A DNA stretch of 64,000 nucleotides from Myxococcales bacterium (GTDB lineage: Bacteria > Myxococcota > Myxococcia > Myxococcales > 40CM-4-68-19), in NCBI GenBank assembly GCA_020201435.1, contig JAIVGS010000189.1, forward strand, positions 14,404-78,403, given 5' to 3'. This document shows, piece by piece, positions 30,958-44,049 of this stretch; position 1 is the stretch's first letter, and each line of letters starts with the position of its first letter. A program made the translations under genes and the position numbers. The notes beneath the pieces were generated by a model. The model was not told the origin of the DNA. It was given only the letters and a program-made list of their open reading frames with translations, and made no database searches.

Positions 30958-31595
30958 AAGAGCGACGCGGCCACGACGCGAGGGCCGTCGTCCAACCCGA
31001 CCTCCGGCCCGGCGAGGATCAGACGCGCCTTCGGCGCCCGTCCGGCGACTGCGCGGGCGGCATCGTCGACCTCACGCAGCGACGCGTTCGGCCTCAACCG
31101 GCAGGTGACGAGCACGTCGCGCGCCTGCGGTACGGCGTCCGCGACCGAGCGATGGAGCAGCGCCGCGCGCGGGCTGATGAGCTGGTGGATCTCGCGCGGC
31201 TCGACGCCGATCAGGCCGAAGACCGCGAGGGGCTCGACGAAACAGCGCACCGCGTCGGACCACGTCGCCGGCTCGATCGGCCGCACCACGCACGCCTGCG
31301 TCAACCGCGCCGCGCGCTCGAGCCGGGCCGTCGCCTGCGGACCAGGGTTCACGGGGAGCGCGGGCAGCACGACCAGAGGCATCTGCCGGAAGATCCGGGC
31401 GACCTTCGCGGCCGCGGCGAGCGCCGGGTCGTCCGCCTCGGCGCAGAGCACGACCAACACCGAGCCGCCCGGCGTCCGCTTGATCTCCCGGAAGTCGTTG
31501 GCGACCAGCACGCACGAGAGCGCCGTCGCGTCGAGGGTTGCCGCGTCGCGAAAGGGGGCATCGCCGAGAGCGACCACGGTGCCGGCGTACTGCAT
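30954..31595 (-). CDS. hypothetical protein with degenerate FtsZ/tubulin-like layout
   Basis: Start re-set to ATG 31595; codons upstream of it lose GC3 bias. 213 aa. Its order of blocks parallels FtsZ (see findings), but no GGGTGS/TG loop is present. Confidence 0.45.
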   Translation of the reverse strand: MQYAGTVVALGDAPFRDAATLDATALSCVLVANDFREIKRTPGGSVLVVLCAEADDPALAAAAKVARIFRQMPLVVLPALPVNPGPQATARLERAARLTQACVVRPIEPATWSDAVRCFVEPLAVFGLIGVEPREIHQLISPRAALLHRSVADAVPQARDVLVTCRLRPNASLREVDDAARAVAGRAPKARLILAGPEVGLDDGPRVVAASLF

Positions 31596-31751
31596 GTACT
31601 TAGAGGTAACACCAGCTCCTACCCGCCGAAAGCCCACCGCTGTGCGGGACTGTCGGGATGCAGATCGAGCGCGAAGATCTTCCTCGTCTGCGGCGATCGG
31701 CTGGCGATCGATACCTGGATCCGTCGCTGGTGCCCGAGCCGCTGCGCACGT

Positions 31752-32123
31752 TCATGCCCCAGGCGCGAGCACACTGATCGGCAATTCCCGCCGCGCGCAG
31801 GCCACCACCAGCGCGGGCGGCAGGACGATCGAGCCGCGTCCCTCGTCGGCATGCATGACGATCTCGAGGTCGAGCTGCAGCCCGCCGACCCGCATCTTCT
31901 CGAACGACTCCGCGCGCTGATCCATCAGCCAGATCGCGGCCTTCCGCAGGCTGGGCGCGGCGTCTCCGTACGCCACCTCGAGGCGCGCCGAGGCGAGCGG
32001 CGGATCCTCGCTCACCGCGGCGACCCGCTCTTCGAGGCCGAGCGGCCCGAGGATCTCCTCCTTGCGCACCGGCTCGCCCTTCGGCTTGCGCGCGCGGAGC
32101 GAGATGGAGACGCGGTCCGCCAT
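31752..32123 (-). CDS. hypothetical protein
   Basis: ATG 32123 ('MADRVSISLRARKPKG'), 123 aa. Overlaps the hbd stop by 1 nt (TGATG). Confidence 0.5.
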   Translation of the reverse strand: MADRVSISLRARKPKGEPVRKEEILGPLGLEERVAAVSEDPPLASARLEVAYGDAAPSLRKAAIWLMDQRAESFEKMRVGGLQLDLEIVMHADEGRGSIVLPPALVVACARRELPISVLAPGA

Positions 32124-32977
32124 CAGTACTTGTAGAAACCCTCGCCCGATTTCTTTCCGAGCTTGCCCGCGCGCACCAACCGCCGCAGCAGCTGCGGCGG
32201 CCGGAACCGCTCGCCCAGCTCCTTCAGGAGGTGCTCCGCGATCGCCAGCCGCACGTCGAGGCCGACCTGATCGGTCAGCTTCAAGGGACCCATCGGATGG
32301 CCATAGCCGAGCTCGATCGCGCGATCGATCTCTTCGGCGGTCGCCACGCCCTCCTCGAGCATCCGGATCGCTTCCATCGCCAGCGCGATCCCGAGCCGGC
32401 TGGTGGCGAAACCGGGCGCATCGCGGACCACCACCACTTCCTTGCCCATCCGCGCCCCGACCGCGCGCGCCGCGGTGACGACCAGCGGATGCGTCCGCTC
32501 CCCCTGCACGATCTCGAGCAGCTTCATCGCCGGGACCGGATTGAAGAAGTGGAGCCCGATCACCCGCTCGGGATGCGTCGCCGCGGCCGCGATGGCCGTG
32601 ATCGGCAGCGAGGACGTATTCGTCGCGAGGATCGCGTCGGCGCGCGCCGACTTCGACAGGCGGGCGAATAAATCCCTTTTCAATTCGAGATCTTCCGGCG
32701 CCGCCTCGATGATCAGGTCGGCTTCGGCCGGCATCTGGGCGGCGACCGAGAGCCGCGCCAGCGCTTGATCGCGTTCGGCGGCCGTGCAACGGCCCTTTTC
32801 GACGGCCCGGCCGAGCGAGTCGCCGATCCGTTCGAGCGACTTCTGCGCCGCGCCCGGCACGACGTCGAAGAGCTCGACCCGGTAACCGGCGCGCGCCGCA
32901 ACCTGCGCGATCCCGGTCCCCATGGTCCCCGCGCCGATCACCGCGACGCGCTGCACGTCGAGCACGGTGATGGCCAT
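32123..32977 (-). CDS. hbd: 3-hydroxyacyl/3-hydroxybutyryl-CoA dehydrogenase
   Basis: ATG 32977 ('MAITVLDVQRVAVIGAGTMGTGIA'), 284 aa. 'TNTSSLPIT', 'GLHFFNPVPAMKLLEIV', 'DAPGFATSRL', 'GYGHPMGPLKLTD'. Confidence 0.9.
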   Translation of the reverse strand: MAITVLDVQRVAVIGAGTMGTGIAQVAARAGYRVELFDVVPGAAQKSLERIGDSLGRAVEKGRCTAAERDQALARLSVAAQMPAEADLIIEAAPEDLELKRDLFARLSKSARADAILATNTSSLPITAIAAAATHPERVIGLHFFNPVPAMKLLEIVQGERTHPLVVTAARAVGARMGKEVVVVRDAPGFATSRLGIALAMEAIRMLEEGVATAEEIDRAIELGYGHPMGPLKLTDQVGLDVRLAIAEHLLKELGERFRPPQLLRRLVRAGKLGKKSGEGFYKY

Positions 32978-33459
32978 CAGACGTTTCCGAAGTAGACGCC
33001 GCGCTTCTGCTCGAGGGCGTGGTCGAGCACCTTCTGGACCTGCTCGAAGACTTCGGCCCATACGTCGCCGAGGGTCGGCTCTTTTCCGAGGCGCGAGCGG
33101 GCCGCGGTGATCATCGCCTCGATGTCCTCGGGGCTCGCGAAATCGCCCTGGCCGCTCTTCATCGCGTCGGCGGGCTTCTTGCCGAGCTCGTCGCGGGCGA
33201 CGTCGAGCGCTTGGCGCAGGTCCTCCGCCTGCTGCCTCGTCAGCGGCCGTTCGTTGACCAGCTGCTCGAGCACCGGCTCGATCGCGGCCTTTCCCTTCGG
33301 CGCGTGCAGCCGCAGCTGGTAGAGGAAGATCGCCCAGTCGCCGCGCGAGCAGACCCGCTCCGCGGCCTCCCACGGGTGGTCCTTGAGCCACTGCTCCCAC
33401 TCGGCGTCGCCCCACTTTCCGAAGCCGTCGGGGGGCGCCACGCTCAGGTAGACGGACAC
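32977..33459 (-). CDS. hypothetical protein
   Basis: 160 aa, Trp/Glu-rich, good GC3 bias. Its stop overlaps the hbd start (TGATG). Confidence 0.5.
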   Translation of the reverse strand: MSVYLSVAPPDGFGKWGDAEWEQWLKDHPWEAAERVCSRGDWAIFLYQLRLHAPKGKAAIEPVLEQLVNERPLTRQQAEDLRQALDVARDELGKKPADAMKSGQGDFASPEDIEAMITAARSRLGKEPTLGDVWAEVFEQVQKVLDHALEQKRGVYFGNV

Positions 33460-33487
33460 GGCGGATCGTCTATCACGAGTTTCACCG

Positions 33488-33916
33488 CTACTGCACGCCG
33501 CCGTCGGAGAGCGTGAAGCGGCAGGACGATTCGCCGCCGGCCTTGACCAGCATCGTCCGCGACGGGCCGCCGGGGACGGTGAGCGTGTAGCGGCCCTCGT
33601 TGAGCGCCGGCAGCGTGCAGTGCATCACCCGCTGGATGCAGCCCTGGTCGAGGCACGCCCCGCTGAGGAAGCTGATGCACTGGTCCTGCGTCACGTCGAG
33701 CGCGACCGAGGCGTTGCGCAGGAGCGCGGTGCAGCTCGGCATGTCGCTGCAGCCGTTTCCGCACAGCTCGCGGACCTCGATCACCGAGGGGATGCCGGGG
33801 GCGATCGACGCCGGCAGGCAGACGTCGCCGACGTCGGCGGTCTTGTTGTCGCAGCTGTCGCCGTTGTCGGTGCACGCGCAGGTCAGAAGGATCGCGCCGG
33901 CGGCGAGAAAGCGCAT
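33488..33916 (-). CDS. secreted Cys-rich protein (12 Cys)
   Basis: 142 aa. Signal 'MRFLAAGAILLTCAC', with 12 cysteines spread through the mature part. Lies 9 nt downstream of the preceding membrane-protein gene. Confidence 0.6.
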   Translation of the reverse strand: MRFLAAGAILLTCACTDNGDSCDNKTADVGDVCLPASIAPGIPSVIEVRELCGNGCSDMPSCTALLRNASVALDVTQDQCISFLSGACLDQGCIQRVMHCTLPALNEGRYTLTVPGGPSRTMLVKAGGESSCRFTLSDGGVQ

Positions 33917-33925
33917 CGCCGTTCC

Positions 33926-34243
33926 TTACATCGCGGCGAGCAGGCGGGAAAGGTAGAAGAGGACGTCGAGCGCGACCAGCGACAATGCGGTGGCGGCGGC
34001 GATCGTCAGCGGGGTGCGGCGAGGTGGGAGCTTCCAGGCGATGGCCGCGGCCGCGAGCGAGGCGATGGAGGCGACGATCAGGTCGCCGTAGTAGCGCATC
34101 TGCACGGCGTTGGTGACGCGGCCGAAATGAGCGCCGCGCGCGACCGGGTCGTAGATCAGGACCGGCAGTTGGAGCGTCCCGGGCAACAGGTATCCGACGG
34201 CGAACGCGCCCACCGCCGCGAGCGCTGTCCGCAGCTCTCTCAT
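33926..34243 (-). CDS. small 3-TM membrane protein
   Basis: Start re-set to ATG 34243 ('MRELRTALAAVGAFAV'), 105 aa. Overlaps the upstream stop (ATGA). Confidence 0.55.
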   Translation of the reverse strand: MRELRTALAAVGAFAVGYLLPGTLQLPVLIYDPVARGAHFGRVTNAVQMRYYGDLIVASIASLAAAAIAWKLPPRRTPLTIAAATALSLVALDVLFYLSRLLAAM

Positions 34244-34674
34244 ACCGAATGGCGCGCGGTGACGTAGAGGCCGATCGCCGCCGCCGTCCAGAGGAAGGCG
34301 GCGCCGGTGCAGGAGAGGGCGGCGACCGGCCATGGCGTTTCTTCGTCCGCCTTGCGGCCGGCGAAGGCCGCGCCGATCACGAGCGCAAGGGCGAGCGCGG
34401 CGAGGTGCTCCTTGAGATCGAAGAGCTGCACCGCGATCGGGGCGCTGCGCTCGAGGTCGGCCGCGCGCACGTTGACGCGGTATGCCGGATAGATGGCGAG
34501 CCCGGTCACGGCCTGGGCGAGGATCGAGGCGGGGGCGATCCAGCCGAACCGGCGCAGCGCGCGCGCCTGCGGTTTCCCGAGCGCGGCGAGCACCGCGTGC
34601 GCGGCGTGGTGGGTGGCCGCGAAGACGGCGGTGAAGCCGAGGATCGCGTGCGAGATGAGCAGCGCCTTGATCAC
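34240..34674 (-). CDS. 4-TM membrane protein with His cluster in TM1
   Basis: 144 aa. 'ISHAILGFTAVFAATHHAAHAVLAAL'. Its GTG start overlaps the rSAM stop (GTGA at 34671-34674). Confidence 0.6.
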   Translation of the reverse strand: MIKALLISHAILGFTAVFAATHHAAHAVLAALGKPQARALRRFGWIAPASILAQAVTGLAIYPAYRVNVRAADLERSAPIAVQLFDLKEHLAALALALVIGAAFAGRKADEETPWPVAALSCTGAAFLWTAAAIGLYVTARHSV

Positions 34675-35876
34675 AGGACGTGCAACTTCCTGGGGACGCG
34701 AAGGCGCGGCTGCGCCGCGGCCATCATCTCCCCGGCACGGTATTCCTGCACGCGCGGGCAGCCGGGATCGGGAGCGGCGAACGCGCCGTGCGCGGCGGAC
34801 ACCGCCCGGCAGCCGCCGCGGCAGAGGCGAAGGTAGTCACAGGACGCACACGGCTCGGGCGCGGCCGCGACGTAATCGCGAAATTCGCGAAATGCGCCCG
34901 GCCACGCGGTTTTCATCGAGCCTTCGACTCGCGCGTCGGCCGCGGCCTGCGCGGTGAAGGAGCAGCCGGTGAACGCGCCTTCGGGCTGCACGGCCGCGAG
35001 CACGTCGCCGCCGACGCAGCCTTGCACGCCGAAGAACGCGGCGGCTGTTCTGGACGGCTTGTGCCAGAAGACCATCGGGGCGAACGAGCAGTCGAGCTTG
35101 ACGCGGATTCGATGGCGAAAGACGAGCCGGCGCGCCATCGGGAACAGCTCTCGAGCCTGCTCCTGCGTCAGCTCCTCGTCGAGCCGCGCGCCGCGGCCGA
35201 CCGGCTTGAAGCGCAACAGCTCGAGCTCGTTGAGCCGCAGGTTTCGCACCAGCCGCGCGACCTCCGGCACCTGGTCGAACGAGCTGCGGCTGACGACGCA
35301 GTTGACGCCGACCTCGGGTTTGACTGCGCGCAGCAGCCGGAGCGCCCGCTCCGCGTGACGGAAACCATCGAATCCACGGGCTTTTTCATACGCGGGCCCG
35401 ACGCCGTCGACGCTGACGTTGATCTGGCCGAAGACCGCGCACTTGCGCGCGGCGGCCTCGTCGACGCCGAGGCCGCTGGTGGTCAGGTTTGGCGTGATGC
35501 CTTTCGAGCGGGCGTGGGCCGCGACCGCGAACAGATAGTCGAGCTCGAGCGCCTCGCCGCCGCCGAGCGCGACGTGGAAGACGCCCATCGCAGCGAGCTC
35601 GTCGAGGATCCGGCAGGCATCCTCGAACGGGAGCGCCGCGCCTTGGGGAGTGGCGTCGACGTAGCAGCCCTTGCATCCGGCGGCGCAGCGGCGCGACAGC
35701 ACGACGTGCACCTCGGTCGGAGCGCTCAAGGGCCCTTCTTCCGGCAGGTCCCAGAGCGGCGACTCCGGCTCACCCAGCTCGCGCATCATCTCGCGGTCGA
35801 CGTGCAGCAGCGCGCGCGGCCGCTGCAGCTCGACGATGCCGCCGAACCGCTCGGCGCGGACCCGCGCGACCTTCAC
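34671..35876 (-). CDS. radical SAM / SPASM-domain enzyme (peptide-maturase type)
   Basis: Carved from the 720-aa read-through ORF. GTG 35876, 401 aa. CX3CX2C 'CAAGCKGC', 'GGGEAL', and a SPASM Cys pattern 'GCVGG...GAFTGC...CASCDYLRLCRGGC...GCP'. Confidence 0.85.
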   Translation of the reverse strand: MKVARVRAERFGGIVELQRPRALLHVDREMMRELGEPESPLWDLPEEGPLSAPTEVHVVLSRRCAAGCKGCYVDATPQGAALPFEDACRILDELAAMGVFHVALGGGEALELDYLFAVAAHARSKGITPNLTTSGLGVDEAAARKCAVFGQINVSVDGVGPAYEKARGFDGFRHAERALRLLRAVKPEVGVNCVVSRSSFDQVPEVARLVRNLRLNELELLRFKPVGRGARLDEELTQEQARELFPMARRLVFRHRIRVKLDCSFAPMVFWHKPSRTAAAFFGVQGCVGGDVLAAVQPEGAFTGCSFTAQAAADARVEGSMKTAWPGAFREFRDYVAAAPEPCASCDYLRLCRGGCRAVSAAHGAFAAPDPGCPRVQEYRAGEMMAAAQPRLRVPRKLHVL

Positions 35877-36034
35877 CGCCGATCCCGCCGCAGAAGCGAG
35901 CCGAGCAGCACCGCCATCGCGCTGGCGAAGACGGCGCCGAACAGCAGGAACGTGACGTCGACTCCCAGCGAGCTGGAGTTCGGGTTGCAGCCGAACGTGG
36001 CCTGCAGCACGCGGCCGCGGCGGAAGAGCTTCAT
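35873..36034 (-). CDS. unlisted 53-aa ORF: Gly-Cys / TM helix / Arg-cluster mini-protein (candidate rSAM substrate)
   Basis: Manual translation gives MKLFRRGRVLQATFGCNPNSSSLGVDVTFLLFGAVFASAMAVLLGSLLRRDRR*. 50 of 53 codons end in G/C. Its TGA overlaps the rSAM GTG (GTGA). It starts 9 nt after the upstream stop. Confidence 0.65.
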   Translation of the reverse strand: MKLFRRGRVLQATFGCNPNSSSLGVDVTFLLFGAVFASAMAVLLGSLLRRDRR

Positions 36035-36043
36035 TCCGCCATG

Positions 36044-37117
36044 CTACTTCTTGTTGTCGCTCGCGTGTGGATGGGGCGCGGGTCGGGAAGCGGGCGGGGC
36101 GGCGGGTGCGGCTCGGGCCGGAGGAGGCGGCGCGTAATAACGCATGCCGCCGCCGCCGCGGGGCCCGCTCGGACGTGCACCCGGGCCCGGCCCGCTCGGA
36201 CGTGCACCCGCACCCGGCCCGCTCGAACGAGGCGCCCCGGTGTACGGCCGCGGGGCTGCGCCGGGCCGTCCGACGGGGGCCGGCGCGGCCTCGGCGCGGG
36301 GCCTCGCCTGGACCGGAGAGCGCATCGGATCGCCGGCCGTCCGCATCGGCGCCGGAGAGGACGTCGCGCGCGGCCGGATCACGTTCGCCGCCGCGACGCG
36401 CGGGACCGGCTGGCCGACCGCGCGCTGGATGCCCGCGACCGGCGGTCCGAACGAACCGGTTCGCATCGGCCGCGCGCTCGGCCCGCCCAGCGGCCGCGCG
36501 GTGGTCACGATCGGCGCGGTCTGCTGCGTCGGCACCGCGGCGCGCGGGATCGGCTGCGTGAAGTGACGCTCGGGGACTGCGACCCACGCCGGATGGCGGT
36601 AGCCGAAGACGACCCCGTCCGGTCCGAGCGGACACCACGCGGCGTACCCGCCGCCGTAGCGCCAGCTCACCCAGGCCGGAGCCCAGACGCGGCCGGGGAT
36701 CCAGTACCAGCCGACGCCGATCCCGAAGTTCCAGCGGCCGTAGTGGTACGCGGCCCAGCCCCACGGATCGTCCGAGACGAAAGTCCAGCCCCAGTCGGTC
36801 AGGACCCAGCGCCCGTAATAGTAGGGGCGCCAACCGTACCCGACGGCGGGGATCCAGACCCGGCCGTATGGGGCGACATACGTCCAGGTGCCGTACGGCG
36901 AGAGGCCGCCGTAAAAGACGTCCTCGTCGGCGATCTCGCTGCCGGCGGGCGGCGGCGGCTCCTGCGTCTGATAGCTGGAATCGGGCGGGACGGTGTCAGG
37001 CCCCGGGGGAGGCGGCGCAGCCACGGTCGGCTCGGGTTCGCGCTCGTACGGGCGTTCGACGATGCAGCCGAACGACGCGGTGAGAGCCAGAGTCAGGATG
37101 GTGCCCAATGAACGCAT
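36044..37117 (-). CDS. YXWGXW-repeat lipoprotein with Pro/Arg/Gly-rich C-terminal tail
   Basis: Start re-set to ATG 37117 ('MRSLGTILTLALTASFGC', lipobox). Repeats 'YGRVWIP', 'YYGRWVLTDWGWTF', 'PWGWAAYHYGRWNF', 'GWYWIPGRVWAPAWV'. Confidence 0.7.
   Translation of the reverse strand: MRSLGTILTLALTASFGCIVERPYEREPEPTVAAPPPPGPDTVPPDSSYQTQEPPPPAGSEIADEDVFYGGLSPYGTWTYVAPYGRVWIPAVGYGWRPYYYGRWVLTDWGWTFVSDDPWGWAAYHYGRWNFGIGVGWYWIPGRVWAPAWVSWRYGGGYAAWCPLGPDGVVFGYRHPAWVAVPERHFTQPIPRAAVPTQQTAPIVTTARPLGGPSARPMRTGSFGPPVAGIQRAVGQPVPRVAAANVIRPRATSSPAPMRTAGDPMRSPVQARPRAEAAPAPVGRPGAAPRPYTGAPRSSGPGAGARPSGPGPGARPSGPRGGGGMRYYAPPPPARAAPAAPPASRPAPHPHASDNKK
36163..36233. repeat. 27-bp tandem repeat (about 2.6 copies) inside the YXWGXW gene tail
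   Basis: GCCCGCTCGGACGTGCACCCGGGCCCG / GCCCGCTCGGACGTGCACCCGCACCCG / GCCCGCTCGAACGAGGC... It encodes GARPSGPG units on the minus strand. Confidence 0.85.
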
Positions 37118-37144
37118 GCGGTTCTCCTCGGCTTTTTGACGGCC

Positions 37145-37174
37145 GGAAAACCCCTGCGATTCAAGACCCGCAGG
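37145..37174 (-). terminator. weak intrinsic terminator between the SDR-aminotransferase gene and the YXWGXW/rSAM operon
   Basis: Minus strand reads CCTGCG-10 nt-CGCAGG, followed by GGTTTTCC. Confidence 0.35.
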
Positions 37175-37202
37175 TCGTTGTTTCGCCCACATTGTAATGC
37201 GT

Positions 37203-38864
37203 TCAGGGGCTGAGCGCCCGTCTGGCAGCGGACACCGCCCGGTCGTTCTGGGCGCGGCGGCCGAGGGGGACGACGACGGCCGAGGGGTCCCAGTGCGCCT
37301 CCTGGACGGGCAAGCCGGCAGCCTGCAGGGCGAAGAGCAGGCGGGCCGCCGCCGGATGTCTGACGAGCAGGACGGGGGCTGGACTCTCGGAGACCGCGCA
37401 GCCGAGCTCGCGAAGGGCGGCGGCGATTCTTGCCCGCTCGCGGACGAGCAGCAGCCCGGCGCGCCGGGTGCGCTCCGGACGATCGAGGACGGCGTCCGCC
37501 GCGGCGATCTGCGGCGCGCCGAGAGGAAACGGCAGCTCGAGCTTGCGCAGCAGGGCGATCTGCTCCGGCGGGCCGATCGCGTACGCGACGCGCATCGCGG
37601 CGAGACCCTGCAGCTTGCTGAACGAGCGAATCCGGATCGCGCCAGACGGCTTCGGCGGTTCGAACGACCACGCTTCGTCGAGGACGAGAGGAATTCCGGT
37701 GCGCTCCAGGAGCGATCCCTCGCCTGCGGGCAGGGTCGCGCCGGTCGGGTTGTCGGGCGAGGCCACGTAGAGCAGCCGCGTCCGCGGGCCGATGGCGGAG
37801 AGGAGCGGAGCGGCGGAGTGGGCCGGCTCGAACAGACCGTCCGGCCTGCGGCGCGCGGGCACGGCGCGGTGGCGGACGCCTTCCCGCGAGCAGAGCGCGG
37901 AGAGAACTTCGAAGGTCGGGAAGGGGCTGACGATCTCGTCCCCCCGCGAGCAGAAGACGCGGATCGCGCGCTCGATCAATTCGGTCGCGCCGCCGCCGGA
38001 GAGCGCGACGCAGCTTTCGTCGACGCCGTGCAATGAGGCGATGCGCGCGGCGAGGCGGGCGGCGCCGCGAGGGTAGGCCTGCAGTGGAATCGATTTCAGC
38101 GCGGCGCGGACCCGTGGCGACGGTCCGCGGCCAGGCTCGGCCTCGAGCGGCGGCTCGCGGAACGGCTCGACGTCGGCGAGCCGGCCGTCGCCCGCGAGCG
38201 CAGCGGCGGGATCCAGTTGCAGCGCCTCGGCGTCGAGGATCCGGCCCGTCCCCGGGAGCGCGGCGGCCGTGATCACGAGCGGTGCGATCTCCTCGGCCGA
38301 GGGGAATTTCTCGAGCCATTCCGCTGGTGTACCGGCGTCGACGTGCAGCTGCGTACGGACCGGGCCGAGGCAGAGCGCGTTGGCGCGGGCGCGGGGCCAG
38401 CACTCCTCCGCGAACGTGCGCACCATCGATTCCAGCGCCGCTTTGGCGGCGGTGTACGGGCCAGCACCCGGCATCGGCGGCCGCCGCGTGGCGAGGCTCG
38501 AGAGAAAGAAGACATGCTTCGCGCCCCTCCGAAGGAGCGCACCGGCCGCCACCGCCGGGGCCACCGCGTTGGAAAAAAAATGTTTTTTCATTTTTTCTGC
38601 GCCGGCGTCCTCGAGGGCCACCGCCCGGTGGGCCGAGCCGACGCAGATCAGCGCCAGGTCGACCGCGCCGGCCGCCGCCGCGAACTCCTCCGCGCCTGCA
38701 TCGGTCGACACGTCCGCCACGATCGCCCGCGCGCCGGTCTCGGCCGCGACGGCGCGGATCTCGTCCGCCGTCCGCGCGCAGATCGTCAGCTCGGCGAGCC
38801 CCCGCAGCGCGCGGGCGCACGCGGCGCCAATTCCGCGCCCGGCGCCCGCGATGGCGACTTTCAA
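37203..38864 (-). CDS. fusion protein: N-terminal SDR plus C-terminal class I/II (HisC-like) aminotransferase
   Basis: 553 aa. SDR part: 'IAGAGRGIGAA', 'YTAAKAALESM'. Aminotransferase part: 'SPDNPTG', 'VLDEAW', 'RSFSKLQGLAAMRVAY' (PLP Lys). Confidence 0.75.
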   Translation of the reverse strand: MKVAIAGAGRGIGAACARALRGLAELTICARTADEIRAVAAETGARAIVADVSTDAGAEEFAAAAGAVDLALICVGSAHRAVALEDAGAEKMKKHFFSNAVAPAVAAGALLRRGAKHVFFLSSLATRRPPMPGAGPYTAAKAALESMVRTFAEECWPRARANALCLGPVRTQLHVDAGTPAEWLEKFPSAEEIAPLVITAAALPGTGRILDAEALQLDPAAALAGDGRLADVEPFREPPLEAEPGRGPSPRVRAALKSIPLQAYPRGAARLAARIASLHGVDESCVALSGGGATELIERAIRVFCSRGDEIVSPFPTFEVLSALCSREGVRHRAVPARRRPDGLFEPAHSAAPLLSAIGPRTRLLYVASPDNPTGATLPAGEGSLLERTGIPLVLDEAWSFEPPKPSGAIRIRSFSKLQGLAAMRVAYAIGPPEQIALLRKLELPFPLGAPQIAAADAVLDRPERTRRAGLLLVRERARIAAALRELGCAVSESPAPVLLVRHPAAARLLFALQAAGLPVQEAHWDPSAVVVPLGRRAQNDRAVSAARRALSP

Positions 38865-40639: not shown

Positions 40640-43600
40640 TCAGGGACGGACCTGCACCGTTCCGGTTCGTGCGAGCTTGCCCCAGCCGACCGCGAATCCC
40701 GCGAGCGCGTTCCAGAGCGAGCGAATCAGCGCGACCCAGAGGAGTTGCCGGTAGGCGATTCGCTGGACGAACAGGCCCGCGAGCAAGCCGAGATCCTCTC
40801 CTTCGAGCAGCACCGCGACCGCCGAGAGCAGCAGGTCGAGCGCGAAGAAGAGCAGGTAGTAACCCGCAGTCGCCAGCGCGCGACCCCGCAGGAGCGAAAC
40901 GAGCAGGAGGATGTCCACCACCGGGGCCACGAACGGTACGATGAATTGATAGATGGCGAACGCGGGCAGGATCGCCCACCCGAGGACGCCGCCGCCGCGC
41001 CGGAACAGCCGCGACTTGTGCTTCCAGCACGCCTGGAGGACGCCGTACGTCCAGCGGAACCGTTGTTTCAAGAGCGATTCCGCCGTCTCCGGCGCCTCGG
41101 TATACGCGAGCGCCTGATCGGCGTAGACGACGCGGAATCCGGCCGCGATCAACCGCAGGGTCAGATCGGTGTCCTCGGCGAGCGTGTCCTCGTGGAATCC
41201 GCCGGCGTCGAGGACGGCCTTTCGCCGCCAGGCGCCGACCGCGCCGGGAACGACCGGCACCGCGCCGGCCAGGTCCCACGCGCGCCGCTCGAGGTTCTGC
41301 GCGGTCACGTACTCGAGGGCCTGCCACCGCGTCAGCCGGTTGACGCGATTGCCGACTTTCGCGTTGCCCGCGACCGCTCCGACGCGCGCGTCGGCGAACG
41401 GCGCGGTCAGGCGGGCGACGGTCTCCGGCGTGAAAATCGTGTCGCTGTCCAATGCGACGACGACCTCGCCCCGGGCTTCCGCAAATCCGAGATTGAGCGC
41501 GCTTGCTTTGCCTCCGTTCGGCTTGCCGAAGATGCGCACCCGCGGATTGCCGTCGAATTTCTCGTGTAAGACCGCAAGAGTACGGTCCTTGGAGCCGTCG
41601 TCGACGCAGACCACTTCCGCTACTTGAGGCTCCTGCGCGAGCAGAGAATCGACGGTGCGCGCGATCACCGCTTCCTCGTTGTAGGCCGGCACGACGACCG
41701 AAACCGTCAGCCCCGGCGGCGGCCGCTGCAGCCCGTTGCGGCGCGCCCGCCGCGCCTGCAGCGGCGCGAGCACCGCGAGGATGACGGCGCGCAGCGCGAG
41801 CAGCGCGATGGCGAACGCGAACAGCGGTCCGAGCGCGCGCGCGATCCCGCCGAGGATGCCGAAGACGACGCTGTCCGCGCTCGCCACCAGCGCCGACGCC
41901 GGCGCACGCGGAGCGGGCGGCAGCAGCTGATCGCGCGTGAACCCGGTCATCTCTTCCGGAGTGGCCAGCGCCAGACCCTTCGCCGCGAGCCCGTCGAGGA
42001 TCAGGGGCAAGGCCGCGAGGGTCGCCGACCGATCGCCGCCGCCGTCGTGCAGCAGGATCACCGATCCCTTGTCGACCTGCGCCAGCACGCGCGACGCGAT
42101 CACTTGCGGATCGCGCTCGGCGAAGTCCTCCGGATCGATGTCCTGGCCGAGCGTCAGGTACCCCATCTGTGACGCGCGTGCGATCACCTGCGCGTTCTGC
42201 GCTTCGTCGAGCGCCTCGTCGGAGTGATACGGCGGCCGGAACAGGCGCGGCTGCCGTCCGGTGATCCACTCCAGCAGCCGCTCGTTGACGTTGAGCTCGA
42301 CCTCCAGCCGCAGCGGCGAGACGCGCGAGAGATCCGGGTGGGTATAGGTGTGATTCCCGATCTCGTGTCCCTCCACATACTCGCGCCGCACCAGGTCCGG
42401 GCGTGCCTGCGCGTTCTCGCCGATGAGGAAGAACGCGGCTTTCGCACCCCGTGCCTTCAGGAAATCGAGGATCTCCGGCGTCCACTTCGGGTCCGGCCCG
42501 TCGTCGAACGTGAGCAGCACTTTTCCCGCCGGCTTCGCGCCGTGGCGCTCGAGGATCCATCCCGACGGGTACTGCTGATAATCGACCCGCGCGACGTGCC
42601 CGGCCGGATCCCACGCCACCGTCCGCCGCCCCGACTGCGGCCGCGCTTTGAGCGAGAAGACCTCGCCCTCACCGACCAGCGCGACGTCGTCGGGATCGTG
42701 CGCGGTGATGACGCCGTCGAGGCGCTGCCGCGCCAGGCTCTCGTCGAACCGGCGCTGCTCGGGAGGCCTGGCGAAGAGATCGAACACCCGCGGGTCCTCG
42801 GCACCGAGCCGCCAGATGGCGACGCCGCGGACGTGGAGCGGCTCGAGCGCCTCGAGCTGCGCGGCCATCGCCGGCGCGTCGAGGAAACGCACCTCGTGCT
42901 TCTCGTGCGCCTGGTCGTCGTCGTACTCGAAGTACGAGGTCTTCGAGTCCTGGTCCCACTCGATCGGGACCTCGTTCTCCCGCGCCAGAGCCAGCGCCTG
43001 GCCGAACGCGAGCTCGTCCGCCGGCCGCGCCGTGTCCCCGTCGGAATCGAGCGGCCAGTCGTAGCCATAGGCGCCGAGGGCGACGACGATCCTGTCGGCG
43101 GGCGCGCGCCGAAGGTATGCCGCCGCGCTCTCGGCGACGTAGTCCGGCGTCGCGATCGGCCCCGGATTGTCGGTCGAAGCGTGCTGGTCGTACGCCATCA
43201 CCACCAGAAAATCGGTCGCGGCCGCGAGCCGTTCGACCGGAACGCCGCGCAATTCGGCCGGCACGTCGACGCTCAGCAGGAAGCCGCGCGGATGCAGCTC
43301 CGTCCACGCCTGCTCGACGAACGCGGCGAGCTCCTGCCACAGCCTCGGATCGAGGTCCTCGAAGTCGAGGTTGACCCCGGCGAACCCGCGCTCCTCGCAG
43401 AGCCGCGCGAGCCGCTGGGCGCCGTCTTTTCGGGAGAGGAACGTCTTCACCAGCTCGCGCCGGAACTGCCCGTCCGCATAGTTCGAGACCGTCGGCGTCA
43501 ATTCCAGCCGCGCCGCCGCCTGCGCCAGGCGAGGATCCTCCTCGATCAGGAAGCTGCCGTCGCGATCGAGCCGGATCCACTCCGGCATCGCGTGCGTGAG

Positions 43601-43978
43601 CTGGTCGGCATGCGCCTGCAGCGAGGTCAGGCTCTGCGGATCCCAGTTGACCGCGAATCCCGCCAGCACCGGCTCCCGCGCATCGGCCGGTTTGCGCCGC
43701 CGCTGCGCGGCCTGTGCCTCGGTCAGTAGCGTTTTGAGACGGGCAGCCTCGTTTCGATACGCCCGTTCCCGCGCCTTGCTCTCCAGCGGATGGCCGGCCG
43801 GCAAGACGCCGCGGCCCACCGGCGCAGGCTCGGGCTCCGCCGCGCTCCTGCTCCACGGCGCAGGAAAGATCGAGACGAGAAACACGCCGAGCGCCGCCAC
43901 GGCTCCCGCCGCGCCGAGCACCGACGCGGCGCGAACCGCGCGTCCGCGCACTCCCGATTCATCACGAAACACGCTCAT
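40640..43978 (-). CDS. triple-domain exopolysaccharide enzyme: GH18-like, CE4 polysaccharide deacetylase and family-2 glycosyltransferase (PgaC/NodC-like)
   Basis: About 1112 aa from ATG 43978 (track start 44017). GH18-like 'GVNLDFEDL'. NodB 'LLTFDDGPDPKWTPEILD...GNHTYTHPDL'. GT2 'VSVVVPAYNEE...VCVDDGS...ALDSDT...QRFRWTYG'. Multiple TM helices. Confidence 0.8.
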   Translation of the reverse strand: MSVFRDESGVRGRAVRAASVLGAAGAVAALGVFLVSIFPAPWSRSAAEPEPAPVGRGVLPAGHPLESKARERAYRNEAARLKTLLTEAQAAQRRRKPADAREPVLAGFAVNWDPQSLTSLQAHADQLTHAMPEWIRLDRDGSFLIEEDPRLAQAAARLELTPTVSNYADGQFRRELVKTFLSRKDGAQRLARLCEERGFAGVNLDFEDLDPRLWQELAAFVEQAWTELHPRGFLLSVDVPAELRGVPVERLAAATDFLVVMAYDQHASTDNPGPIATPDYVAESAAAYLRRAPADRIVVALGAYGYDWPLDSDGDTARPADELAFGQALALARENEVPIEWDQDSKTSYFEYDDDQAHEKHEVRFLDAPAMAAQLEALEPLHVRGVAIWRLGAEDPRVFDLFARPPEQRRFDESLARQRLDGVITAHDPDDVALVGEGEVFSLKARPQSGRRTVAWDPAGHVARVDYQQYPSGWILERHGAKPAGKVLLTFDDGPDPKWTPEILDFLKARGAKAAFFLIGENAQARPDLVRREYVEGHEIGNHTYTHPDLSRVSPLRLEVELNVNERLLEWITGRQPRLFRPPYHSDEALDEAQNAQVIARASQMGYLTLGQDIDPEDFAERDPQVIASRVLAQVDKGSVILLHDGGGDRSATLAALPLILDGLAAKGLALATPEEMTGFTRDQLLPPAPRAPASALVASADSVVFGILGGIARALGPLFAFAIALLALRAVILAVLAPLQARRARRNGLQRPPPGLTVSVVVPAYNEEAVIARTVDSLLAQEPQVAEVVCVDDGSKDRTLAVLHEKFDGNPRVRIFGKPNGGKASALNLGFAEARGEVVVALDSDTIFTPETVARLTAPFADARVGAVAGNAKVGNRVNRLTRWQALEYVTAQNLERRAWDLAGAVPVVPGAVGAWRRKAVLDAGGFHEDTLAEDTDLTLRLIAAGFRVVYADQALAYTEAPETAESLLKQRFRWTYGVLQACWKHKSRLFRRGGGVLGWAILPAFAIYQFIVPFVAPVVDILLLVSLLRGRALATAGYYLLFFALDLLLSAVAVLLEGEDLGLLAGLFVQRIAYRQLLWVALIRSLWNALAGFAVGWGKLARTGTVQVRP

Positions 43979-44049
43979 TTCGAGACCCTTTGACGCACGC
44001 GCAGCCGCTTCATGCAACGGGTGTGCCGGCCTGTGTTACACACCCACCC

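Follow-up and report, generated by a model that had tools for sequence, protein, structure and literature searches.

Within the 64-kb window analyzed here (the whole stretch of 64,000 nucleotides from a Myxococcales bacterium, GenBank assembly GCA_020201435.1, contig JAIVGS010000189.1, positions 14,404 to 78,403 of the forward strand), the gene of a radical S-adenosylmethionine (SAM) enzyme with a SPASM domain directly follows that of a 53-amino-acid (aa) single-pass membrane mini-protein carrying the motif NPNSSS. These two genes form a conserved pair, and we put the probability that the enzyme modifies the mini-protein, the two constituting a dedicated two-gene module, at roughly 0.55. An earlier note on this DNA had treated six consecutive genes as one module, namely a YxWGxW-repeat lipoprotein (DUF6600), the mini-protein, the enzyme, two small proteins with four and three transmembrane (TM) helices (tm4 and tm3), and a Cys-rich protein. 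Only the mini-protein and the enzyme proved to be widely conserved, and the complete chain was confined to 15 closely related loci, all with at least 72% identity in the enzyme. Four of the six flagged genes are not needed to define the module, and the remaining two constitute a minimal testable system. No paper on the pair was found in the searched literature and no curated model in Pfam, NCBIfam, or PADLOC.

Linkage and conservation of the mini-protein and the enzyme

When one genome per species was scanned, 251 relatives of the enzyme were found, and the comparisons described here use the best 80 loci, or 81 neighborhoods including the window. Loci were compared by tblastn, by gene calls based on the G+C content of third codon positions followed by all-against-all clustering, and by hidden Markov model (HMM) searches of six-frame open reading frames (ORFs). 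The best 80 loci are all from metagenome-assembled genomes (MAGs), mostly of Myxococcota (including Kofleriaceae, Archangiaceae, Haliangiales, and Polyangiaceae), with one labeled Bdellovibrionota, one WOR-3, and one Thermodesulfobacteriota. A homologue of the mini-protein was found in 66 of the 81 loci. Because 7 of the 15 misses have less than 300 nt of sequence upstream, this corresponds to 66 of 74 informative loci. The mini-protein gene usually lies directly upstream of the enzyme gene, with a 4-nt overlap or a gap of less than 150 nt, and the pair was seen down to 43% enzyme identity, so that the linkage spans Myxococcota as well as WOR-3 and Bdellovibrionota MAGs. The earlier note had proposed a gene-neighborhood analysis and held that a lack of conserved synteny would speak against its reading; for the mini-protein and the enzyme, synteny is conserved. 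The most distant pair, with 43% enzyme identity, lies in a candidate division WOR-3 MAG (locus L056, 4971–6350), where the order is inverted and the mini-protein (…IRIQLEYNPNSSSSTSFG…) is encoded directly downstream of the enzyme.

The linkage was also observed when the mini-protein was used as the seed, independently of the enzyme. The enzyme gene lies immediately downstream for four of six mini-proteins looked up in this way (L083, L085/86, L087/88, and L089). By both approaches, the enzyme thus has an adjacent and co-varying small gene, which is one hallmark of systems for peptides that are ribosomally synthesized and then modified post-translationally (RiPPs). In addition, unless its bin is chimeric, the MAG JANYKT01 contains two divergent copies of the module (L004 and L022). 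Each copy has its own mini-protein and its own tm4 and tm3, which argues for specific pairing.

A profile search placed the mini-protein in a family of at least 2,895 clusters from soil and sediment Myxococcota, all annotated as “hypothetical” and none with a Pfam domain. The members are about 53–80 aa long. In 184 sequences, on which the conservation values given for the mini-protein are based, the layout consists of a basic N-terminus, the segment R-G-R/K-I/V-L-x-I/V-K-W/F-G-x, the segment N-P-N-S-S-S-L-G-V-D-V-T-F-L-L, a TM helix, the segment L-L-R-W-R-K/R, and a variable Pro/Glu/Ala-rich tail. Approximately 28 consecutive positions are near-invariant. Within NPNSSS, the residues N, P, N, and S are conserved at 100% and the next two Ser residues at 99%, and no Cys, Trp, or Tyr is invariant anywhere in the mini-protein. 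For 12 core codons compared across 60 loci, 279 synonymous and 49 non-synonymous differences were counted, and most of the 49 fall at the variable position between IKWG and NPNSSS, which holds the Cys of “TFGC” in this window. This purifying pattern, together with the synteny across many species-level genomes, indicates that the arrangement is not due to chance. The net charge is +4.5 for the N-terminus versus +1.4 for the C-terminal flank. This bias predicts an orientation with the N-terminus inside, in which the conserved segment would be within reach of a cytoplasmic Fe–S enzyme.

The earlier note had pointed out the likeness of a “TFGC” sequence in the mini-protein to the “SFGC” lipobox of the neighboring lipoprotein. 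The likeness is present in this sequence but coincidental, and its interpretation as a lipobox is wrong, because the Cys occurs in 11% of the 184 members, other clades having M, Y, V, A, L, or T in its place, and the invariant feature is NPNSSS. A lipoprotein nature of the mini-protein was accordingly rejected; the Cys is clade-specific, and the stretch in front of it comprises only 15 residues, mostly polar or basic, with no signal-peptide h-region. The same note had found no known precursor family in the chain; the mini-protein has no match in Pfam, NCBIfam, or PADLOC. The mini-protein contains no C/S-x-P-x-R motif, no conserved Glu/Tyr pair, no conserved Tyr, and no C-terminal Val-Tyr.

The enzyme is a member of the radical SAM superfamily, with a score of 47.7 bits for PF04055 (Radical_SAM) against a cut-off of 29.5, and Cys64, Cys68, and Cys71 of its CX3CX2C motif are invariant in 48 homologues. 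It also contains a SPASM domain (TIGR04085, 34.6 bits; cut-off, 27). Cys287, Cys305, Cys343, Cys346, Cys352, Cys356, and Cys373 of this region fit the seven-Cys pattern C-x9-17-G-x4-C, gap, C-x2-C-x5-C-x3-C, gap, C, and these residues, as well as Cys263, are invariant. No cut-off of a more specific curated family was reached. Among the 25 NCBIfam families listed of the 40 matched, the best sub-threshold scores were those of MftC (TIGR03962, 118.1 bits against 265, E = 4.5e-34, residues 50–376), GeoRSP (92.8 bits against 400, residues 50–373), NirJ (88 against 515), and PqqE (TIGR02109, 86 against 381.35). The earlier note was right in seeing no recognizable RiPP or cofactor-pathway precedent for the chain around the enzyme. 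The best sequence match in the PDB was PqqE (6c8v, E = 6.6e-16, residues 50–379), followed by SkfB, anSME (anaerobic sulfatase-maturating enzyme), CteB, and SuiB.

An AlphaFold2 model of the enzyme (predicted local distance difference test score (pLDDT), 87; predicted template modeling score, 0.86) was compared with known structures by Foldseek. SuiB was the best match (E = 3.9e-15, TM-score 0.70, approximately 430 aligned columns), followed by anSME (E = 1.6e-14), SkfB, PqqE, and CteB, and the weaker matches included the lipid-modifying radical SAM enzyme GDGT-MAS. As judged from the model, the nearest fold relatives (SuiB, anSME, SkfB, PqqE, and CteB) are all modifiers of peptides or proteins. 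A β-β-β-α element precedes the barrel in the model and is formed by strands at residues 3–9, 12–17, and 22–27 and a helix at residues 28–33. Arg7, Glu9, Phe11, Gly12, Pro20, Leu23, and Trp42 of the N-terminal segment are invariant family-wide. The NCBIfam model TIGR03967 of MftB, which is the chaperone that binds the peptide in mycofactocin synthesis, weakly matched 4 of 16 diverse N-terminal segments, with a best E-value of 0.0068, and the segment had no match in Pfam (including PqqD) and no PDB sequence match. The modeled element is a possible peptide-docking site resembling the RiPP precursor recognition element (RRE), which we regard as a lead rather than a finding. The earlier note had reported that no PqqD or RRE gene is present. 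This holds for separate genes, as none of the six chain proteins matched a PqqD/RRE family in Pfam or NCBIfam, but the enzyme itself has this conserved N-terminal element with its weak MftB likeness.

Proposed modification of the mini-protein and competing explanations

From the linkage, the conservation, and the fold class, we infer a mechanism in which the role of the mini-protein as substrate, its docking mode, its topology, and the chemistry are all provisional. The cytoplasmic radical SAM/SPASM enzyme would post-translationally modify the single-pass mini-protein. The basic and strand-like RGR-I/V-L-x-I/V-K-W/F-G segment may dock on the β-β-β-α element by strand addition, like leader peptides on RRE domains, and the juxtamembrane loop N-P-N-S-S-S-L-G-V-D would be placed in the SAM/[4Fe-4S] barrel. 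The 5′-deoxyadenosyl radical would then take a hydrogen atom from an invariant residue. Since the mini-protein has no invariant Cys or aromatic residue, a thioether or Trp/Tyr crosslink is unlikely as the family-wide reaction, and a Ser/Asn-centered oxidation, an epimerization, or a backbone/side-chain crosslink would be likelier than a sactionine or a Trp/Tyr crosslink. The product would probably remain tethered to the inner membrane, its modified loop facing the cytoplasm.

Retention in the membrane is suggested by the position of the TM helix, which is as conserved as the motif, and by the absence of a co-occurring protease or exporter. The six chain proteins gave no protease or ABC-exporter match in Pfam or NCBIfam, as the earlier note had said of the chain. 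No protease, ABC/MFS exporter, or PqqD/RRE family was found among the families that recur in at least 4 of the 81 neighborhoods, as judged by inspection, with only the families f8 and f20 scanned against Pfam. The leader protease and exporter typical of RiPP systems are thus missing from the 81 neighborhoods at this level of inspection. The proposal in the earlier note of a product that is retained by the cell rather than secreted is hence the better reading, as the partner is a membrane protein. An envelope-localized maturation, which the note had also suggested, is not favored, because the conserved segment of the mini-protein is predicted from its charge to be cytoplasmic, so that the modification would take place at the inner face of the membrane.

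Pairs of a radical SAM/SPASM enzyme and a small peptide have repeatedly led to new chemistry and cofactors, such as pyrroloquinoline quinone (PQQ), mycofactocin, streptide, and the sactipeptides. What is new here is a pair of such an enzyme and a cognate peptide in which the partner is highly conserved and membrane-anchored and in which release machinery is absent. The pair departs from the usual RiPP logic in its presumed substrate, a conserved single-pass membrane protein without invariant Cys, Trp, or Tyr, in the absence of a protease and an exporter, and in a recognition element that is seemingly cut down to an enzyme-fused stretch of approximately 45 residues. Should the mini-protein be modified, the reaction on N-P-N-S would probably be new, and would yield a modified micro-protein that the cell retains instead of a secreted natural product.

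Several observations weigh against this proposal. Conservation extends over almost all of the mini-protein and also covers where its TM helix lies, a pattern that is no less typical of structural subunits or membrane anchors than of RiPP precursors. No known substrate motif of radical SAM/SPASM enzymes corresponds to the invariant N, P, N, and S, and the status of the mini-protein as substrate is argued by analogy, from linkage and precedent. Models of the tetrapyrrole-modifying enzymes NirJ, AhbC, and AhbD match the enzyme at sub-threshold levels similar to those of the peptide maturases. The RRE-like assignment of the N-terminal element is weak in view of the E-value and the missing Pfam and PDB sequence matches given above. 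Two of the six looked-up mini-proteins were seen without the enzyme, which is not encoded within 10 kb in L081/L090 or on the 3.5-kb contig of L084 (approximately 1.6 kb on each side). Conversely, eight enzyme loci with ample flanks lack the mini-protein (L035, L046, L048, L049, L068, L070, L075, and L079).

In a rather unlikely alternative, the mini-protein is a membrane anchor or activating subunit and the enzyme acts on a lipid, a quinone, or a tetrapyrrole, possibly together with tm4 and tm3. The full-length conservation of the mini-protein, including the TM helix position and the basic flanks, would be expected of such a subunit, and no protease or exporter recurs in the neighborhoods. 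The NirJ, AhbC, and AhbD scores, the presence of GDGT-MAS among the weaker fold matches, and the two His residues that tm4 keeps 13 residues apart in TM1 also fit a non-peptide substrate. On the other hand, the best sequence and fold relatives of the enzyme modify peptides or proteins, its extra N-terminal β-sheet element is of the peptide-binding kind, the most conserved part of the mini-protein is the soluble NPNSSS loop and not the TM helix, and tm4 and tm3 are absent from most loci. An unlikely extension of the modification proposal, less probable still, is that the tail-anchored mini-protein becomes a membrane-anchored, peptide-borne prosthetic group. The enzyme would oxidize or crosslink the NPNS loop, the modified mini-protein would serve in place as a redox or catalytic cofactor on the cytoplasmic face, and tm4 and tm3, with the two TM1 His residues, would in the lineages that have them form a heme-type electron relay from the auxiliary clusters or the modified mini-protein to the quinone pool. 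If true, this would be a peptide-derived cofactor that remains part of its precursor and in the membrane throughout, made by radical SAM chemistry on a motif without Cys or aromatic residues.

A diffusible redox cofactor similar to PQQ or mycofactocin, for which the NPNSSS region would be crosslinked or oxidized and a fragment excised by unlinked proteases, is improbable. The closest HMM and PDB relatives are indeed MftC and PqqE, the mft and pqq loci likewise have a small peptide gene directly upstream, and the N-terminal segment has weak MftB-like matches; yet MftC, at 118 bits, falls well short of its cut-off of 265 bits, no further cofactor-pathway families recur in the inspected neighborhoods, the mini-protein has neither a C-terminal Val-Tyr nor a Glu/Tyr pair, and the conserved TM helix would serve no purpose for a diffusible product. 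Thioether formation on Cys-rich proteins is known for some SPASM enzymes, such as QhpD acting on QhpC. By analogy, the Cys-rich lipoprotein (or the DUF6600 lipoprotein) could be crosslinked before export, which would accord with approximately 10 conserved Cys in a 142-aa protein, with its place in the same tightly packed gene chain, and with CteB and SkfB among the fold matches. This is highly improbable, as both proteins are limited to the clade of the window and are missing in all loci with less than 67% enzyme identity, where the enzyme persists, and the Cys-rich one is missing also in L005, L020, and L023; it is the mini-protein, not these proteins, that tracks the enzyme. The probability that the enzyme is an anSME converting Ser or Cys to formylglycine, with unrelated neighbors, is next to negligible. 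An anSME is among the top fold matches and among the PDB sequence matches over the SPASM region, and a 913-aa sulfatase (PF00884 and SGSH_C) is encoded 4–7 kb downstream of the enzyme in L087 (18014–20189) and L088 (15291–18032). However, a sulfatase neighbor occurs in these two related loci only, the 64-kb window has no sulfatase signature, the 25 NCBIfam families listed, out of 40 matched, include no anSME model, the mini-protein lacks C/S-x-P-x-R, and the tight linkage to the mini-protein would stay unexplained. The earlier note had held that an assignment to the sulfatase maturases, with a sulfatase nearby, would speak against its reading, and the enzyme is not one by these results.

The gene chain and its neighbors

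The six minus-strand ORFs of the chain, as claimed in the earlier note, were all recovered at the positions given there (Table 1), and the start codons chosen agree with the N-termini of the homologues. From the DUF6600 lipoprotein gene to the Cys-rich lipoprotein gene, the junctions are a 9-nt gap, GTGA, GTGA, ATGA, and a 9-nt gap. The GTG start of the enzyme gene overlaps the stop codon of the mini-protein gene, the GTG start of tm4 overlaps the stop codon of the enzyme gene, and ATGA joins tm4 and tm3. Four overlaps had been claimed, and only three exist, while the 9-nt gaps are indeed present at both ends. The weak terminator proposed at 37145–37174 did not hold up; it has a 6-bp stem, a 10-nt loop, and a run of four T, was not called by a terminator scan, and lies outside the minimum-energy fold of the 88-nt intergenic RNA. 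A terminator and promoter scan of 31500–38000 detected no minus-strand terminator and no sigma-70 site. A search for sigma-54 patterns found nothing upstream of the chain, and the window has fewer matches overall than expected by chance.

Table 1 Positions of the chain genes and of elements within them in the window.
Feature	Position	Strand	Basis
DUF6600 (YxWGxW-repeat) lipoprotein with Pro/Gly-rich tail	36044–37117	minus	Pfam PF20245, E = 5.7e-31
53-aa single-pass membrane mini-protein: MKLFRRGRVLQATFGCNPNSSSLGVDV + TM + RRDRR	35873–36034	minus	ORF and homologues
NPNSSS codons, mini-protein residues 17–22	35969–35986	minus	Translation; conservation in 184 sequences
Radical SAM/SPASM enzyme, 401 aa, GTG start	34671–35876	minus	Pfam Radical_SAM and NCBIfam SPASM
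N-terminal extension of the enzyme, residues 1–45	35742–35876	minus	AlphaFold2 secondary structure and conservation
CX3CX2C motif CAAGCKGC, residues 64–71 (radical SAM [4Fe-4S] cluster)	35664–35687	minus	Translation
SPASM region, eight invariant Cys for two auxiliary clusters	34758–35090	minus	Translation, invariant columns
144-aa protein with four TM helices (tm4), GTG start	34240–34674	minus	ORF, four helices in AlphaFold2 model
105-aa protein with three TM helices (tm3)	33926–34243	minus	ORF, pairs with tm4
142-aa Cys-rich lipoprotein	33488–33916	minus	ORF, conserved N-terminal Cys

The genes tm4 and tm3 always occur together and are linked to the enzyme gene in about 35 of the 81 loci, in two gene orders; linkage to the enzyme was counted in 36 loci for tm4, and tm3 accompanied tm4 in 35. 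They lie downstream of the enzyme gene in the clade of the window and in L039 and L043, and upstream in an Archangiaceae-like clade, where the order is phosphoesterase, tm4, tm3, f8, mini-protein, and enzyme. Within 10 kb, they are absent in the large Kofleriaceae clade. The survival of the linkage through rearrangement argues for a functional tie to the enzyme, and tm4 and tm3 are proposed as an accessory membrane partner in some lineages, which may serve as a receptor for the modified mini-protein or take up electrons from the auxiliary clusters. The AlphaFold2 model of tm4 is a four-helix bundle (pLDDT, 91) without a significant fold match in the PDB, the best being oxidase subunit III-like bundles at E = 0.3. 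The tm4 family comprises 383 representatives at 50% identity, and when 67 distant relatives were scanned against Pfam, the weak matches were scattered and differed from member to member, with no consistent family. In these 67 members, Gly58, Tyr62, Pro63, Phe85, and Lys88 are invariant and Val69, Arg70, Glu89, and Gly135 nearly so, and the conserved motifs are G-x3-YP-x-YR-x2-VR and FD-x-KE.

The earlier note had described a His cluster in TM1 of tm4 and suggested that the small membrane proteins could bind heme or metal. Of the four His residues, His9 (66 of 67) and His22 (57 of 67) are conserved, and His23 and His26 are clade-specific; tm3 has no conserved His. The two conserved residues, 13 positions apart on one predicted helix, would fit heme ligation, yet partner ligands are lacking. 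Because tm4 has no significant structural relative and no consistent Pfam family, heme or metal binding stays a guess.

The other chain genes are confined to the relatives of the window. Together with hyp160 and hbd, the two lipoprotein genes are found in the window’s own clade only (at least 67–72% enzyme identity), which gives them the appearance of inherited synteny, and they are probably neighbors by descent and not core components. The DUF6600 lipoprotein had tblastn matches only at loci with at least 67% enzyme identity. The Cys-rich protein occurs in 20 loci, all of this clade, and is missing from L005, L020, and L023, though the rest of the chain is present there. It had been described as a secreted Cys-rich protein; its Cys-rich nature was confirmed by approximately 10 further conserved Cys, while a conserved N-terminal Cys that follows its signal sequence (lipobox) shows the protein itself to be a lipoprotein. 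In searches of the five non-enzyme proteins, NCBIfam and PADLOC gave no match, and Pfam matched the DUF6600 lipoprotein alone. The gene of this lipoprotein contains a 27-nt tandem repeat at 36162–36229 (2.5 copies, 92% matches) that encodes the repeated GxGARPSGP of the Pro/Gly-rich tail.

The position upstream of the mini-protein gene, which is held by the DUF6600 lipoprotein gene in the clade of the window, is held in other clades by f8, a tetratricopeptide repeat-like membrane protein of approximately 270 aa. The f8 gene is upstream of the mini-protein gene in 28 loci and never in the window’s clade. Of the two copies in JANYKT01, one has a window-like layout (mini-protein, enzyme, tm4, tm3, and Cys-rich protein), and the other has the order phosphoesterase, tm4, tm3, f8, mini-protein, and enzyme. 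The MAG JAYUUC01 likewise contains two divergent copies (L035 and L040). In L081/L090 (10001–11830) and L084 (1615–3484), the NPNSSS mini-protein is followed by a DUF4397 lipoprotein of approximately 512 aa in place of the enzyme. An f8 fragment lies 9.7 kb upstream of the mini-protein in L090, which suggests a broken-up locus. A sub-clade of enzymes (L046, L048, L075, L079, L068, and L070) has a longer basic N-terminus and no mini-protein with an NPNS motif within 10 kb, and keeps the R-x-E-x-F-G element. A LysR-type regulator is encoded upstream in L046, L048, L075, and L079, and a PpsR-like gene downstream in all six.

The flanks of the chain in the window include a glycoside hydrolase family 18 (GH18)/deacetylase/family-2 glycosyltransferase fusion, NadE, a fusion of a short-chain dehydrogenase/reductase (SDR) and an aminotransferase, and Hbd, and among those in Kofleriaceae are a PpsR-like kinase/phosphatase and a ClpS fusion. 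These remaining flanking genes look unrelated to the module. The SDR fusion (553 aa, 37203–38864, minus strand; class I/II aminotransferase) is directly upstream of the DUF6600 lipoprotein, and the 85-nt spacer between them is structured (fold z-score, −2.5). The GH18 fusion (1,093 aa, 40640–43921, minus strand) contains a polysaccharide deacetylase and a glycosyltransferase resembling chitin or poly-N-acetylglucosamine synthases; in 29 loci it is conserved upstream of the chain. A sigma-54-like motif with one mismatch is located at 44014–44028 (minus strand), and such matches are rarer than chance in the window. The Kofleriaceae-type loci L085, L087, L088, and L089 (about 0–12 kb) share a block encoding a PALP enzyme, a polysaccharide deacetylase, an AstA-like protein, two unknowns, a sigma-54 activator (response regulator), f8, the mini-protein, and the enzyme, continued sometimes by a Clp_N/ClpS fusion and then by the PpsR-like kinase/phosphatase. 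The base composition of the window is approximately 70% G+C, and very long ORFs in alternative frames, such as one of 720 aa at 34671–36833 (minus strand) across the enzyme, mini-protein, and lipoprotein genes, are artefacts of this composition.

Comparison with known radical SAM/SPASM systems

The mycofactocin system resembles the pair in that MftC (TIGR03962) gave the top curated score, that the gene directly upstream, which is translationally coupled, encodes a small peptide, and that the N-terminal segment of the enzyme weakly matches MftB in 4 of 16 members. It differs in that the score of 118.1 bits is below the cut-off of 265, a separate MftB is absent, and the mini-protein has a TM helix and NPNSSS but no C-terminal Val-Tyr, which we take to be the modified residues of the mycofactocin peptide MftA. 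The partners to be expected in such a locus, presumably MftB, MftD, MftE, and MftF, were not among the neighbor families in the Pfam and NCBIfam scans. The PQQ system is similar in the adjacent peptide substrate gene and in PqqE, which is the best sequence match of known structure and among the top fold matches. In contrast, the TIGR02109 score is 86 bits against 381.35, the neighborhoods have no PqqB, PqqC, or PqqD genes, and the mini-protein is membrane-anchored, exceeds PqqA two- to threefold in length, and lacks a conserved Glu/Tyr pair. The genes to be expected in a PQQ locus would be those of PqqA, PqqB, PqqC, and PqqD (also PqqF), and the residues modified in PqqA a Glu/Tyr pair.

SuiB/StrB is the top structural match, and both enzymes have an N-terminal domain ahead of the radical SAM barrel. 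However, the identity is 14–15%, the element here is approximately 45 residues versus a full winged-helix RRE, the mini-protein has no conserved Lys/Trp pair, and there is no exporter or protease gene. Anaerobic sulfatase-maturating enzymes act on a Ser or Cys of a protein that is not cleaved afterwards. In this respect anSME/AtsB, a fold match at E = 1.6e-14, is the nearest parallel to a Ser-rich loop whose modification would stay on the protein, and it differs in the absence of C/S-x-P-x-R from the mini-protein, of a sulfatase from the window, and of a family-level HMM match. GeoRSP (TIGR04303/TIGR04304), which we take to be a bioinformatically defined radical SAM/SPASM system with a small partner, is compared with the pair here by the enzyme score; among the curated models it ranks second (92.8 bits, residues 50–373), far under its cut-off of 400 bits. 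Although it fails the cut-off scores, substrate motifs, and accessory genes of these systems, the pair of mini-protein and enzyme works most like MftA/MftC, PqqA/PqqE, and SuiA/SuiB.

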